The translations under genes and the position numbers were made by a program. The notes under the pieces are model-generated. The model was not told the origin of the DNA and did not search any database. It worked only from the letters and a program-made list of their open reading frames with translations. Below are positions 7,649 to 22,194 of a DNA stretch of 32,848 nucleotides, one piece after another. Source of the stretch: Patescibacteria group bacterium (GTDB lineage: Bacteria > Patescibacteriota > Minisyncoccia > Phycocordibacterales > UBA2100); NCBI GenBank assembly GCA_024654485.1, contig JANLHO010000049.1:1-32848 (forward strand), written 5' to 3'. Position 1 is the stretch's first letter. Every line of letters begins with the position of its first letter.

Positions 7649-8206
7649 ATGGCGATGAACTTCGATTTCAAGAGCTTTGACGAGAAAACGGCGGCCTCGC
7701 TGGAGTGGCTCGCCAAGGAGTATCGCGGACTGCGCACGGGCCGCGCCACCCCCATGATACTGGACGGATTGATGGTTTCCGCGTACGGCTCCATGATGCC
7801 TCTGAAGCAGGTGGCCAATGTCGGCGTAGAGGATGCGCGCACGCTGCGCGTCAGCGCCTACGACGCCGGGCTCATTAAGGATATAGAGCGCGCCATCGCG
7901 GGCGCGGACCTTGGTGTGGGCACTTCCACCGACGGCTCCAGTGTCCGCGTGACCTTTCCGGAGCTTACCGGTGAGCGTCGCGCCGAATTCATAAAGCTTG
8001 CGAAGGCGAAGCTTGAAGAAGCGCGCGCCACTGTGCGCGTCGCGCGTGATGAAGTGTGGAAGAATATCCAGTCGCGCGAGCAGGAGGGGACGCTTACCGA
8101 AGACGACAAATACGCTCTCAAGGACGAGCTGCAGAAAAAGGTGGACGCGGCCAACGAATCGCTGGAAAAGGCATTTGATAGAAAAGAGGAAGAGATGAGC
8201 GCATGA
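7649..8206 (+). CDS. frr: ribosome recycling factor
   Basis: LRTGRATP, AYGSMMPLKQVANV, FPELTGERR. The true start is near 7649 (TGn-TATAAT at 7633-7641), not 7232. Confidence 0.95.
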   Translation: MAMNFDFKSFDEKTAASLEWLAKEYRGLRTGRATPMILDGLMVSAYGSMMPLKQVANVGVEDARTLRVSAYDAGLIKDIERAIAGADLGVGTSTDGSSVRVTFPELTGERRAEFIKLAKAKLEEARATVRVARDEVWKNIQSREQEGTLTEDDKYALKDELQKKVDAANESLEKAFDRKEEEMSA

Positions 8207-9752: not shown

Positions 9753-11000
9753 ATGCGACAATCAAAGCTCTTCACCTCCACGAGGCGCAACGCACCGAAG
9801 GACGAGGTGGTCAGGAACGCCGAGCTTCTCATACGCGGCGGTTTCATACATAAGGAAATGGCGGGCGTGTATTCTTATCTGCCGCTGGGGCTTCGCGTCC
9901 TCCACAAGATAGAGCAGATAATCCGCGAGGAGATGGATGCCGTAGGCGGACAAGAGGTTCGCATGGCGACACTGCATCCGAGCGATAATTGGAAGAAGAC
10001 GGGCGGGTGGAGCAGCGTGGACGTCTTGTTCAAGATACAAAGCCGTACGGAAAAAGAATACGCTCTCGGTTCCAGCGAGGAAGAGATAGTTACTCCGATA
10101 GCGCAAGAATATATAGGCTCGTACAAGGATTTGCCTCTCGCCGTCTACCAGATAGAGCAGAAATATCGTGACGAGTTGCGCGCAAAGAGCGGTATTATGC
10201 GCGGACGCGAATTCGGCATGAAAGACATGTACAGCTTTCACGCCGACCAGAAAGACTTTGAGCGGTTTTATGAGACGGTCAAACAGGCCTACTTCAAGGT
10301 CTTTGAGCGCTGCGGGCTGGATGCCAAGGTGACGGAAGCTTCCGGAGGCGCCTTCTCCAACAAGCTCTCATACGAATTCATGGTGCTCACGGACGCCGGC
10401 GAGGACGACATTCTCTACTGCGGCCAGTGCACGCACTGCGTCAACGTGGAGGTCGCGAAGCACGCGGCAGGGGATACATGCCCGAAGTGCGGCAAGGGCA
10501 AGCTAAAAAAAGCGCGAGCCGCGGAAGTTGGCAACGTATTTGATCTGGGACAGCGGTACCCGAAAAGCTTCGGCTTCACCTTCAAAGACAAAGACGGGAA
10601 AGACAAGACGCCTGTCATGGGCTGCTACGGGATCGGAACGACGCGCCTCATGGGTACGATAGTGGAGGTACTCTCCGACGATAAAGGAATCGTATGGCCG
10701 GCGACCGTCGCGCCTTTTTCGGTCCACCTCGTCGCCATTGCCGGAGGCAACGCGGACGTTACCGCCGAGGCCGACCGCGTGTACGAACTTCTATGCGAGA
10801 ACGGCATCCCGGCCCTCTACGACGACCGCGACGAGCGTGCGGGCGCAAAATTCGCCGATGCCGACCTCATAGGCATCCCAAAGCGGCTGGTCGTTTCGGA
10901 GAAAACGGTCTCGGCGGGCGGAATAGAGGTGACGGATCGCTCAAACGGCTCCTCTACGCTCGTCGCCGACAGCGCGATAGTTGAACATTTGCGGATGTGA
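9753..11000 (+). CDS. proS: proline--tRNA ligase (short bacterial type without INS editing domain)
   Basis: MRQSKLF, GVYSYLPLG, KYRDELRAKSGIMRGREFGMKDMYSF, EVGNVFDLG, MGCYGIG, anticodon domain DDRDERAGAKFADADLIG. Confidence 0.96.
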   Translation: MRQSKLFTSTRRNAPKDEVVRNAELLIRGGFIHKEMAGVYSYLPLGLRVLHKIEQIIREEMDAVGGQEVRMATLHPSDNWKKTGGWSSVDVLFKIQSRTEKEYALGSSEEEIVTPIAQEYIGSYKDLPLAVYQIEQKYRDELRAKSGIMRGREFGMKDMYSFHADQKDFERFYETVKQAYFKVFERCGLDAKVTEASGGAFSNKLSYEFMVLTDAGEDDILYCGQCTHCVNVEVAKHAAGDTCPKCGKGKLKKARAAEVGNVFDLGQRYPKSFGFTFKDKDGKDKTPVMGCYGIGTTRLMGTIVEVLSDDKGIVWPATVAPFSVHLVAIAGGNADVTAEADRVYELLCENGIPALYDDRDERAGAKFADADLIGIPKRLVVSEKTVSAGGIEVTDRSNGSSTLVADSAIVEHLRM

Positions 11001-12110: not shown

Positions 12111-12890
12111 ATGGACAGGTATTACCGAGCACCAAAAAGAGGCAGGCGACGCCTTATGGCCGCTACGGCCCTCGTCATACTCATACTGATAGCGGATGTC
12201 GTGTCAGGCGGGTACGTGCGCGGACAAGTGCGTCTGGTCGCCTCGGTCGTTTCGGGTTGGGGGAGCGCGCTGATGCGAGGCGTCGCCTCTACCGGCTTTT
12301 TGCAAAGCAGCGCCTCGCTCAAGGCGGAGAATCGCGCACTCAAGATTCAAGTGGCGCAACTATCCGAGAGGGCCGCGTCCGCCGAGGCGCTCAAGCGTGA
12401 GAACGATGCATTGCGCGAGCTCGCACGTCTTGCGGCCGATACACCCGGGATAACGGCTCCCATAATCTCGTCGGTGAGCGCTTCGCCGTACGGCACTTTT
12501 CTTATAGGTACGGGCGGGAGCGACATAATCTCAGGCGACATGGTAATGACGGAAGGGGGTTTCGTCGTGGGTATAGTGAGCGATGTGCGCGAAAGTACGG
12601 CGCTCGTGTCCGAGATATTTGCTCCGGGCAACTCCATAGATGCCTCGCTTCAAGGCGCGTACATACGCGTGGAAGGACGCGGGGGCGGCAACGCGCACGC
12701 TGAAGCGCCGCGCGATCTGATTGTCGGGGTGGGGGATGTCGTTGTAGCGCCGAGCTTCGGGCAGCGACCGATCGGCATAGTAGGGGCGGTCGCCTCCACT
12801 TCAGCCAGCGCTTCGCAAGACGTGTATCTGCATCTGCCGAGCGCGCTCTCAGCGATCTCTTTCGTATATGTATCACCTTCCGATTACTAG
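12111..12890 (+). CDS. mreC: rod shape-determining protein MreC
   Basis: N-terminal TM helix, coiled coil (LKAENRALK...LKRENDALREL), beta-rich C-terminal domain; follows mreB. Confidence 0.85.
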   Translation: MDRYYRAPKRGRRRLMAATALVILILIADVVSGGYVRGQVRLVASVVSGWGSALMRGVASTGFLQSSASLKAENRALKIQVAQLSERAASAEALKRENDALRELARLAADTPGITAPIISSVSASPYGTFLIGTGGSDIISGDMVMTEGGFVVGIVSDVRESTALVSEIFAPGNSIDASLQGAYIRVEGRGGGNAHAEAPRDLIVGVGDVVVAPSFGQRPIGIVGAVASTSASASQDVYLHLPSALSAISFVYVSPSDY

Positions 12891-21322: not shown

Positions 21323-21394
21323 GCCTCCATCGTTCAACGGATAGGACGCGAGCTTCCGGAGCTCGTAATGTGGGTTCGATTCCTGCTGGAGGCA
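21323..21394 (+). tRNA. tRNA-Arg(CCG)
   Basis: Acceptor GCCTCCA/TGGAGGC, anticodon arm CGAGC-TTCCGGA-GCTCG, T-loop GGTTCGATT. Confidence 0.93.
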
Positions 21395-21417
21395 CAAGAT
21401 ATCGTTTGCCTCTGCTG

Positions 21418-21447: not shown

Positions 21448-21559
21448 GGGCCTATAGTATAGCGGTACCCGCCCGAACGACTGACGTCGTTCAGTCGGGC
21501 GGGGAACGCCTCCACCCGCCCGAACGTACCGTTCGGTACGGGCGGGTGGCATGGTGGAG
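21448..21559 (+). pseudogene. duplicate of the 5' 44 nt of tRNA-Ala(GGC), interrupted by two palindromic insertions
   Basis: GGGCCTATAGTATAGCGGTA [36 nt, 21468-21503] GAACGCCTCCA [32 nt, 21515-21546] TGGCATGGTGGAG. With the insertions removed it is 43/44 identical to 21796-21839. Confidence 0.9.
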
Positions 21560-21562
21560 CCT

Positions 21563-21805
21563 ATGGTATACACAGTCTACGTCTTGAAGGACGATCTAAA
21601 CAGGTTGTATAAGGGTATGACGAAGAATCTCTCTGGCCGTATCGCTCAACACAAGAATGGCCATACGATAACCACAGCAAAAATGAAGAATTTGCGCGTT
21701 GCATATACCGAGGAATTTGATAACTTTGAGGGCGCAAGGAAGCGCGAATTGTATTTCAAATCTGCAGCGGGCAGGCGTTTTCTGAAGAAAAAACTGGGCC
21801 TATAG
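21563..21805 (+). CDS. stand-alone GIY-YIG nuclease (UPF0213/YhbQ-like), 80 aa
   Basis: YTVYVL...LYKGMTKNL..RIAQHKNG...T.K...YTEEF....ARKRELYFKS..GR. The stop codon lies inside the downstream tRNA. Confidence 0.92.
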   Translation: MVYTVYVLKDDLNRLYKGMTKNLSGRIAQHKNGHTITTAKMKNLRVAYTEEFDNFEGARKRELYFKSAAGRRFLKKKLGL

Positions 21806-21866
21806 TATAGCGGTAGAACGCCTCCATGGCATGGAGGAGGTCGGGGTTCGACTCCCCGTAGGTCCA
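21796..21866 (+). tRNA. tRNA-Ala(GGC)
   Basis: Acceptor GGGCCTA/TAGGTCC with G3:U70, anticodon arm CCTCC-ATGGCAT-GGAGG, T-loop GGTTCGACT. Confidence 0.93.
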
Positions 21867-22194
21867 CAAAAATAAGGAGAACATCCCGAAGCGATTAATC
21901 TTCGCACGCGGCGCGTGCGTGGTGGCTTTGTACTCTGCCTCACGATTCGACTTCGTGCCGACTCTCTCGGGCGCGCGAGTACGCCACGCCCTCGGCCCCC
22001 GCCCCGCCGCCAATCCTCTCCGCCAAAGGCGGACAGGCATTCTCATCTATTTCGCGGGGGGATTTGAAAAAAGGAATGGGCGGCAGGAGGCAGGGTCGGC
22101 TTCCATTCTCGAAAATTAAATTCTAGATTCGGTGTCTAACACGGGGCCCACTATTAGTGACGAATGTGATATATAAAGTATAATGACACCCCAT

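Follow-up and report, generated by a model that had tools for sequence, protein, structure and literature searches.

We analysed a stretch of 32,848 nt from a Patescibacteria group bacterium (contig JANLHO010000049.1, hereafter 'the window') in which two short GC-rich inserts, A and B, interrupt the 5′ part of a tRNA-Ala sequence. The gene of a small GIY-YIG nuclease follows directly and then the intact tRNA-Ala(GGC). Together, the hairpin-bearing pseudo-tRNA, the nuclease gene and the intact tRNA constitute a selfish cassette of ∼350 bp that is nested in a tRNA gene. A and B are copies of a pan-bacterial family of GC-rich hairpins of 30–36 nt. With a probability of roughly 60%, these hairpins are regular companions of a small GIY-YIG nuclease of the Ssn type, for which the hairpin on single-stranded DNA (ssDNA) would serve as the binding site. 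An original prediction, made from the letters of the window, had described A and B as sibling insertions into a tRNA; it was silent on the tRNA being a truncated duplicate and on the GIY-YIG gene directly downstream.

Hairpins upstream of a tRNA-nested GIY-YIG nuclease gene

The link between hairpin and nuclease is most evident if the protein is taken as the starting point. In a sample of 24 homologues from metagenome contigs (at least 56% identity, at least 200 nt of upstream sequence) a hairpin of the family lies 43–112 nt upstream of the gene in at least 19 cases, or in 14 of 17 after merging near-identical loci, and in 21 of the 24 an intact tRNA (Ala, Val or Thr) starts within −6 to +11 nt of where the protein match ends. 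Small GIY-YIG genes as such are frequent in the genus, with a match at E ≤ 1e-5 in 81 of 116 genomes. Close orthologues (67–69% identity) are found in only five of the 116: all five of these genomes are hairpin-positive compared to 7 of the 111 others (Fisher p = 5e-6, a value that is overstated since the genomes are kin), and each of the five orthologues has a family hairpin in the adjacent pseudo-tRNA-Ala. RecA identity to the genome from which the window derives (79–89%) does not mark the five genomes as one tight group. In a tree of 38 proteins the clade of the window nuclease (support 99/98) comprises five members of the genus, one of Yanofskybacteria and one of Saccharibacteria, with the hairpin present in 7/7; as it was the hairpin that led us to the members from other phyla, the count is unbiased only within the genus. 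More distant homologues (40–49%) are often arranged in mirrored order: tRNA, nuclease gene and then the hairpin-bearing tRNA piece. Other GIY-YIG paralogues show the same architecture with other palindromes, for example a CCCGCCTCG...CGAGGCGGG family at tRNA position 7^8 and double hairpins in pseudo-tRNA-Glu and pseudo-tRNA-Ser. The pseudo-tRNA-Ser cassette belongs to the same genome as the window (contig C27, ∼10480–10900): nucleotides 1–12 of tRNA-Ser are followed by the double hairpin (TCGGCC..GGCCGA then CCAGCC..GGCTGG), the GIY-YIG paralogue and the intact tRNA-Ser(GCT).

The anatomy of the locus is summarised in the table below. Coordinates and sequences of A and B are as predicted, and the two inserts have their first 12 and last 8 nt in common. 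Searching with the pattern CCCGCCCG-N8-30-CGGGCGGG yielded two matches in the window, and 100 dinucleotide-preserving shuffles gave none. The feature is real and not due to chance. Insert A follows index 20 at the 3′ edge of the D loop (GGTA^GAAC), insert B follows index 31 in the anticodon loop (CCA^TGG, 32^33). No direct repeat flanks either of them and their boundaries cannot be shifted, confirming insertion without target duplication. When both inserts were excised in a script, 21448–21559 equalled the first 44 nt of the intact tRNA-Ala(GGC) with the exception of index 40. Removal of the inserts thus restores the tRNA sequence at the junctions as had been claimed, but what is interrupted is a truncated 5′ pseudo-copy and not a gene.

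The open reading frame (ORF) of the nuclease starts at ATG 21563, with a GGAG stretch 3 nt before it (an alternative in-frame ATG is located at 21551), and ends with TAG at 21803–21805. This stop codon falls on nucleotides 8–10 of the intact tRNA-Ala, and the host tRNA stays intact via the duplicated 44 nt. A and B, themselves non-coding, are situated 17–95 nt upstream of ATG 21563; the hairpins occupy one side of the gene only. The protein matches Pfam PF01541 (GIY-YIG) over residues 4–71 (E = 1e-10), and at 80 aa it is too short to accommodate a second domain. An alignment of 14 proteins has conserved Tyr, Tyr-x-Gly, Arg, His and Glu columns, all of which are present in the window nuclease. 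Comparison with NCBIfam and with the PDB sequences gave 0 families and 0 matches, respectively. The neighbouring tRNA-Arg upstream places the cassette within a tRNA gene cluster. A further short GC hairpin (TCCGCC AAA GGCGGA) is located at window positions 22015–22035, ∼150 nt downstream of tRNA-Ala; it resembles one half of double-hairpin repeats elsewhere in the genome, where a relaxed word gave 7 matches.

Table. Features of the tRNA-Ala cassette and its upstream neighbour in the window
Feature	Coordinates	Strand	Basis
tRNA-Arg(CCG), neighbour upstream	21323..21395	+	ARAGORN; Rfam tRNA 54.5 bits
Pseudo-tRNA-Ala(GGC), index 1–20: acceptor 5′ strand, D stem, D loop	21448..21467	+	identical to intact tRNA
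Hairpin repeat A, 36 nt: 8-bp GC outer stem, AACG bulge, inner stem ACTGA/TCAGT, loop CGTCGT	21468..21503	+	
Pseudo-tRNA-Ala, index 21–31: D stem 3′ strand, anticodon stem 5′ strand	21504..21514	+	tRNA comparison
Hairpin repeat B, 32 nt, commonest type	21515..21546	+	sequence, folding, family comparison
Pseudo-tRNA-Ala, index 32–44, one mismatch (index 40); tRNA similarity stops after 44	21547..21559	+	
Gene of 80-aa single-domain GIY-YIG nuclease	21563..21805	+	ORF list; Pfam PF01541
Intact tRNA-Ala(GGC), first 44 nt duplicated upstream	21796..21867	+	ARAGORN; Rfam 58.1 bits

Inserts in a tRNA sequence bring to mind introns or processing signals of a working or split tRNA gene, and the positions 21^22 and 32^33 (37^38 in L246, a metagenome relative with the same double layout) indeed recall those of archaeal tRNA introns, non-canonical and canonical ones. 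We consider this explanation extremely improbable. The interrupted copy does not extend beyond index 44 and lacks the 3′ half; ARAGORN detected no tRNA there, whether the inserts were kept or removed, and hairpin removal restored no tRNA in the window, in 13 loci of the genus or in a single one of 80 named-record loci. Moreover, an intact tRNA of the same kind is always adjacent, the genome is bacterial in its gene content and the same hairpin occurs in frame in protein genes. With no tRNA restored and no Rfam match at 21468–21546 (E ≤ 1), introns of the bulge-helix-bulge or group I type and a split tRNA were rejected.

The position of the hairpins could also be of use to the cassette in cis, in which case A and B would not be nuclease substrates. 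They would then either break up the 44-nt direct repeat, which they split into stretches of 20, 11 and 13 nt, and thereby counteract loss of the gene through recombination or slippage, or act as 5′ stem-loops that stabilise or regulate a nuclease mRNA made from the tRNA promoter. Hairpins between the start of the pseudo-tRNA and the ORF in most cassettes would be in line with this proposal, as would the presence of a hairpin in nearly every surviving cassette, which fits survivorship. Since no T run follows A or B, they are not intrinsic terminators. We find a role restricted to cis quite improbable, however, as it leaves unexplained why unrelated coding genes and spacers contain the identical hairpin, why bulge and loop bases are invariant across phyla and why each nuclease clade keeps a palindrome of its own, and the variable orientation of the hairpin argues against a strict RNA signal.

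Distribution, structure and conservation of the hairpin family

Further copies, for which the original prediction had proposed a genome-wide search, do exist. A search of the 116 genomes of the genus with a slightly relaxed end pattern yielded 36 matches in 13 genomes; one match (in genome G072) was dropped since it lacks the family interior, leaving 35 copies in 12 genomes with 1–10 copies per genome. The pattern read backwards served as a control and gave no match. In named records we found at least 122 stretches, distributed over groups of the candidate phyla radiation (CPR), Bacteroidota, Bdellovibrionales, Planctomycetota and Gammaproteobacteria. Copy lengths range from 30 to 37 nt. The 32-mer of B type is identical in 19 matches among 80 loci read, which come from CPR groups, Bacteroidota and Bdellovibrionales, and one genome of the genus (G014) carries three identical copies. 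Phages were rejected as main carriers: only ∼3 of 17 pattern matches on viral contigs belong to the family, and none of them has a GIY-YIG match or a tRNA nearby.

In the genome of the window (820 kb, 60 contigs, 56% G+C) two further copies bring the total to four, one of B type on contig C9 and one of 36 nt within recA on contig C11. No full-length element bounded by the family ends was found in this genome, in which all three occurrences of the 12-nt start are short copies. A miniature inverted-repeat transposable element (MITE) was considered on account of the 8-bp terminal inverted repeats and rejected, as there is neither a target duplication nor a parent element with the same ends in this genome. 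The C9 copy (7702–7733) differs from the B type by one base and lies between tRNA-Asn and inverted as well as direct partial copies of the 3′ end of that tRNA; a serine-recombinase-like ORF is found ∼500 nt away from it. Among public sequencing runs, none contained more than 0.10 of the words sampled in a search for population polymorphism.

All copies follow a common plan: an outer stem of 8 bp (CCCGCCCG/CGGGCGGG), a one-sided AACG bulge of 4 nt, an inner stem of 4–6 bp that varies between copies and a loop ending in CGT. We aligned 23 copies with a length of 36 nt, of which 22 are distinct and which represent several phyla. The long bulged hairpin is 98.6% paired, and in four of the five inner pairs both partners have changed, as from U-A to C-G in 8 sequences; 0 of 500 shuffles reached the observed values. 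Folding with DNA parameters gave a minimum free energy of −15.9 kcal/mol for A (51% of the ensemble, z = −5.0) and of −12.0 kcal/mol for B (21% of the ensemble, z = −2.8). The original prediction had proposed a conserved two-state structure, with two mutually exclusive inner hairpins in an interleaved X-Y-X′-Y′ layout. This layout is real, and under the DNA parameters either inner pairing can form together with the 8-bp outer stem, at nearly the same energy. Conservation by covariation applies to one of the two states, the long bulged hairpin. The alternative inner hairpin, in which the bulge and the first stem bases pair with the loop, is 80.3% paired with one covarying pair, a pairing level that was reached by 47 of 500 shuffles; it is paired by conservation alone, and changes in the main stem break the outer pair of the alternative helix without compensation. 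As sequence complementarity the two-state layout is real, and on energetic grounds it appears plausible. A simpler reading is supported equally well: the bulge and loop bases, which are invariant across phyla, may be the unpaired bases that a protein would contact.

The hairpin evolves more slowly than its surroundings. Comparing the window with L246, the nucleases are 72% identical, whereas 35 of 36 nt in A and 31 of 32 nt in B are the same. Likewise, in two genomes that share an insertion in the same host gene (G014 and G043) the hairpins are identical at 36/36 positions and the 30 flanking nt at 22/30. This slow evolution would be explained either by purifying selection on the DNA itself or by continual homogenisation among copies. 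It fits the functional substrate that had been suggested for the two inserts.

Insertion sites in tRNA pieces and in protein genes

Pieces of tRNA genes are hot spots for the family. In the genus, 9 of the 35 copies lie in or beside such pieces, plus one variant copy with a changed end; in the named records an intact tRNA is found within 400 nt of 16 of 103 family copies. The tRNA-associated hairpin always sits in a partial duplicate. We mapped 45 pseudo-tRNA junctions on the neighbouring intact tRNA, a set in which some rows are near-duplicates from related populations, some were placed by one flank only, and from which the two junctions of the window, first tried against tRNA-Arg, are omitted. 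The recurrence at loop or helix-edge positions that had been anticipated is clearly visible: 29 junctions fall at the 3′ edge of the D loop (..GGTA^GAGC, 21^22), 7 in the T arm, 6 before the D stem (9^10 or 10^11), 2 in the anticodon loop and 1 at 26^27. In L246 insert B is found at 37^38 and not at 32^33 as in the window, both sites reading CA^TGG. Because of the different position within the same short sequence, B was either inserted independently or has moved.

We also considered the hairpin as a mark of the cassette junction. This was rejected on the basis of genome G043, where both flanks of the hairpin derive from the same tRNA type, which differs from that of the intact tRNA; the hairpin was therefore inserted into the pseudo-copy. 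In genome G063 (L039:2559–2860) a tRNA-like gene beside a hairpin-bearing pseudo-copy is interrupted after the anticodon region by ∼230 nt; a group I intron was considered for this interruption and found no Rfam support.

At 100 distinct insertion sites the target preference is symmetric, TN^NA: position −2 is T in 52 and position +2 is A in 54, with A at +1 in only 8. The preference persists if the 12 D-loop-like sites are left out (T at −2 in 40/88, A at +2 in 42/88). The rule that insertion takes place 3′ of an A, derived from the two inserts of the window, does not hold, as position −1 is A in 30, C in 29, G in 36 and T in 5 of the 100 sites. Insertion into the centre of a larger palindrome was rejected as well: complementarity of the flanks of at least 3 bp was seen at 2 sites compared to a permuted mean of 2.8. 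Two copies in genome G080 are nested within larger palindromes.

At least 15 of the 35 copies in the genus are located within long ORFs, among them recA, a uvrC-like gene, pheT, glyS, the genes of superoxide dismutase and aspartate kinase, carB and uvrA. For six of these host genes the genome of the window has orthologues with exact gaps of 10 or 12 residues at the insertion point. The comparison with empty sites is thus consistent with the prediction: insert-free relatives lack exactly the length of the hairpin, and no target duplication is seen. Of 15 independent coding copies 13 are inserted in phase 0, and they read Pro-Ala-Arg ... Ser-Gly-Gly in either orientation. In the 103 family copies from named records of other lineages we determined whether the reading frame stays open for at least 150 nt on both sides. 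This was the case for 15 of 45 copies with a length that is a multiple of three and for 3 of 58 copies with other lengths (p = 4e-4). Because open frames favour lengths divisible by three, the coding copies are most likely translated.

The recA gene of the window's own genome provides an example (contig C11, 18247–18282): an in-frame hairpin of 36 nt adds 12 residues (PARPDTSGRSGG) between YSI and GETK. Among 29 relatives 19 show the exact empty site, and in the remaining 10 the same codon boundary is occupied by GC-rich inserts that are different or decayed, for which reason the boundary is a recurrent landing or tolerance spot. In genomes G048 (C30:15474–17639, 736 aa) and G070 (C21:11043–13133, 714 aa) recA is found in two pieces within one open frame; the split match suggests an intein of ∼370 aa near residue 216. 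In uvrA, a 34-nt family hairpin of genome G014 (L028:3001–3034) keeps the frame only together with neighbouring changes, and the genome of the window has a longer, different insert (QKPRRPDKSGVGVPTSARGGTSG) at the same site (contig C10, ∼12170–12260).

Recognition, spread and comparison with known systems

The balance of evidence tips slightly towards the hairpin, folded on ssDNA, being the recognition site of the nuclease. The invariant unpaired AACG bulge and xxTCGT loop would then be the bases contacted by the enzyme, and the covarying inner stem would act as scaffolding only. The nuclease might cut next to bound hairpins or in exposed ssDNA loops of tRNA genes, and such cuts could start repair events in which the hairpin is copied or ligated into new sites. 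Copies would survive only where they are tolerated, in dead tRNA pieces, in spacers and, with a length that is a multiple of three, in surface loops of proteins. That the action of the nuclease drives the spread of the hairpin, with ssDNA-exposed DNA of tRNA genes as preferred target, is a tentative and rather doubtful extension. The earlier suggestion that the target is recognised as folded single-stranded DNA becomes more plausible because the nearest characterised nucleases, the Ssn enzymes, act only on ssDNA (PMC11893778).

A number of observations weigh against this partnership. Seven hairpin-positive genomes of the genus are without a close nuclease orthologue, two of them being 72–84% complete, and a GIY-YIG match within 400 nt was found in only 5 of the 80 named-record loci. 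The orientation of the hairpin relative to gene and tRNA is not fixed (6 versus 6 at the D-loop site, and both orientations among the mapped pseudo-tRNA junctions), whereas recognition by Ssn enzymes is strand-specific. The published SRM motif, applied as a regular expression, is found in 0 of 100 family copies with flanks and 0 times in the window; its 10 matches in the whole genome compare to 1–7 in random genomes. Furthermore, GIY-YIG nucleases act on DNA by hydrolysis, and joining is not known for them; insertion without gain or loss of target bases would therefore need another activity, such as a ligase or a repair polymerase. Finally, the D-loop copies (21^22) could owe their spread to gene conversion, with the conserved D-arm sequences of tRNA genes as partners, and not to targeted insertion.

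Some of these observations would be expected if the hairpins were independent selfish palindromes resembling repetitive extragenic palindromic (REP) sequences or MITEs and were moved by another enzyme, for example by Y1 (HUH) transposases similar to the REP-associated tyrosine transposases (RAYT). The link to the GIY-YIG gene would then reflect a shared niche: dead tRNA pieces would accumulate copies as they are neutral, heavily transcribed and contain the preferred target TA^GA. The seven genomes without a close orthologue and the 75 of 80 named-record copies without a GIY-YIG gene nearby are in agreement with such an enzyme. So is the finding of Y1_Tnp (PF01797) above the cut-off in 5/5 genomes tested, a survey that covered hairpin-rich genomes only, and the lack of a target duplication is a typical trait of single-strand Y1 transposition (discussed in PMC11893778). 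The genome of the window itself has two genes of ∼220 aa with a Y1_Tnp domain (C55, 288–1137, and C28, 10026–10688). We regard the Y1 explanation as unlikely, since the C55 gene is flanked by a different repeat, no full-length element with the family ends is present in this genome, the hairpin lies upstream of the great majority of close GIY-YIG homologues in the protein-first sample and different GIY-YIG paralogues have different palindromes. A layout in which a Y1 gene is flanked by the family, as in a REPtron, was not found: the C28 gene is without a family copy within 900 nt, and the C55 gene has pairs of a GTCCGAGGGTTACCCTCGGAC hairpin (6 copies in the genome) on either side, itself a REPtron-like layout.

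A further possibility goes beyond recognition. The hairpin could be a transposase-free mobile element: an Ssn-like nuclease would excise it from ssDNA at the foot of the folded stem and the blunt-stemmed hairpin would be ligated into a nick or ssDNA loop as a three-way junction, folded DNA of tRNA genes (D-loop edge, anticodon loop, T loop) being the favoured landing site. Such a route would lead to exact insertion in either orientation, without target duplication and with a symmetric TN^NA preference. We think that it is rather unlikely. If true, 'fold, cut and paste' would be added to the routes of DNA transposition as a new one, and natural ssDNA nuclease–hairpin pairs with new specificities would become available.

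Binding of the hairpin by the nuclease, the reading that we prefer, connects the dispersed GC-rich mini-hairpins that lie in frame in essential genes of ultra-small bacteria with a defined partner gene, that of the small GIY-YIG nuclease in tRNA genes, and makes the origin of in-gene palindromes directly testable. Bench tests are feasible as the cassette is found in records of cultured Bacteroidota in addition to uncultured groups; cultured carriers in the named records include strains of Zeaxanthinibacter and Pseudozobellia. If the reading is correct, a second hairpin–nuclease pair with an unrelated, well-conserved recognition hairpin would widen the toolbox of site-specific ssDNA endonucleases. 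The locus also illustrates tRNA genes as universal landing sites that let a selfish unit of 350 bp cross phylum boundaries. In a search of the open-access literature we found no description of the tRNA-nested cassette, of this hairpin family or of in-frame palindromes in Patescibacteria/CPR.

The Ssn enzymes (SsnA, cd10448) are, according to Chenal et al. 2025 (PMC11893778), GIY-YIG proteins with a single domain and ∼94 aa, and they represent the only family of site-specific ssDNA endonucleases characterised so far. An NTS/SRM hairpin repeat is bound only in the form of ssDNA, with the cut placed a few nt upstream of it; the repeats flank the nuclease genes, and homologues differ in that each prefers its own repeats. 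The window shares with them a single-domain GIY-YIG protein (∼80–94 aa) combined with hairpin repeats of 20–50 nt that are also dispersed in the genome, different hairpins for different nuclease clades and conserved non-palindromic bases that give the hairpin an orientation. Going by residue number, conserved Tyr, Tyr and Glu residues are found at about the positions mutated in SsnA (Y6A, Y17A, E64A). The systems differ in that their hairpin sequences are unrelated, the asymmetry is internal here (bulge and loop) and in the flanks for Ssn, the hairpins lie on one side of the gene here and on both sides for Ssn, and 1–10 copies per genome contrast with hundreds. Many of the copies described here are in frame in genes, compared to 2% of NTS inside genes. 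The nesting of the gene in a tRNA with a duplicated tRNA piece is a further difference, the word 'tRNA' occurring 0 times in the text of PMC11893778.

REP sequences and bacterial interspersed mosaic elements with their RAYT, as well as IS200/IS605 elements, resemble the family in that short imperfect palindromes act as folded ssDNA, insertion leaves no target duplication and the repeat is tied to one small nuclease gene (as discussed in PMC11893778). The partner here is a GIY-YIG and not a HUH/Y1 protein, the repeats are intragenic as well as extragenic, and the insertion is not preceded by a conserved tetranucleotide, the symmetric TN^NA taking its place. The phage T4 enzyme SegB is a free-standing GIY-YIG homing endonuclease in a tRNA gene cluster (PMC2330249). 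Both systems have a GIY-YIG gene lodged among or in tRNA genes while the tRNA is kept intact, and selfish inheritance is likely. Enzymes of the SegB type have DNA-binding regions besides the catalytic domain, unlike the 80-aa single-domain protein of the window, and neither a hairpin partner nor a duplicated tRNA piece is a feature of Seg genes.

The coding copies find their closest counterpart in the Rickettsia palindromic elements (RPE), reportedly described by Ogata et al. in 2000 as palindromes in frame in housekeeping genes. In both cases the palindromes occur in housekeeping genes of reduced genomes, are read as extra peptide loops and have no identified transposase. With a length of ∼100–150 bp, RPE are several times longer than the 30–36 nt seen here; they are confined to Rickettsia-like lineages, whereas the present family is near-identical across phyla, and neither a nuclease partner nor nesting in tRNA genes has been described for them. 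From the sequence comparisons, the cassette of the window would appear to be a new variant of the Ssn kind, with Rickettsia-like in-frame copies as a probable side product.

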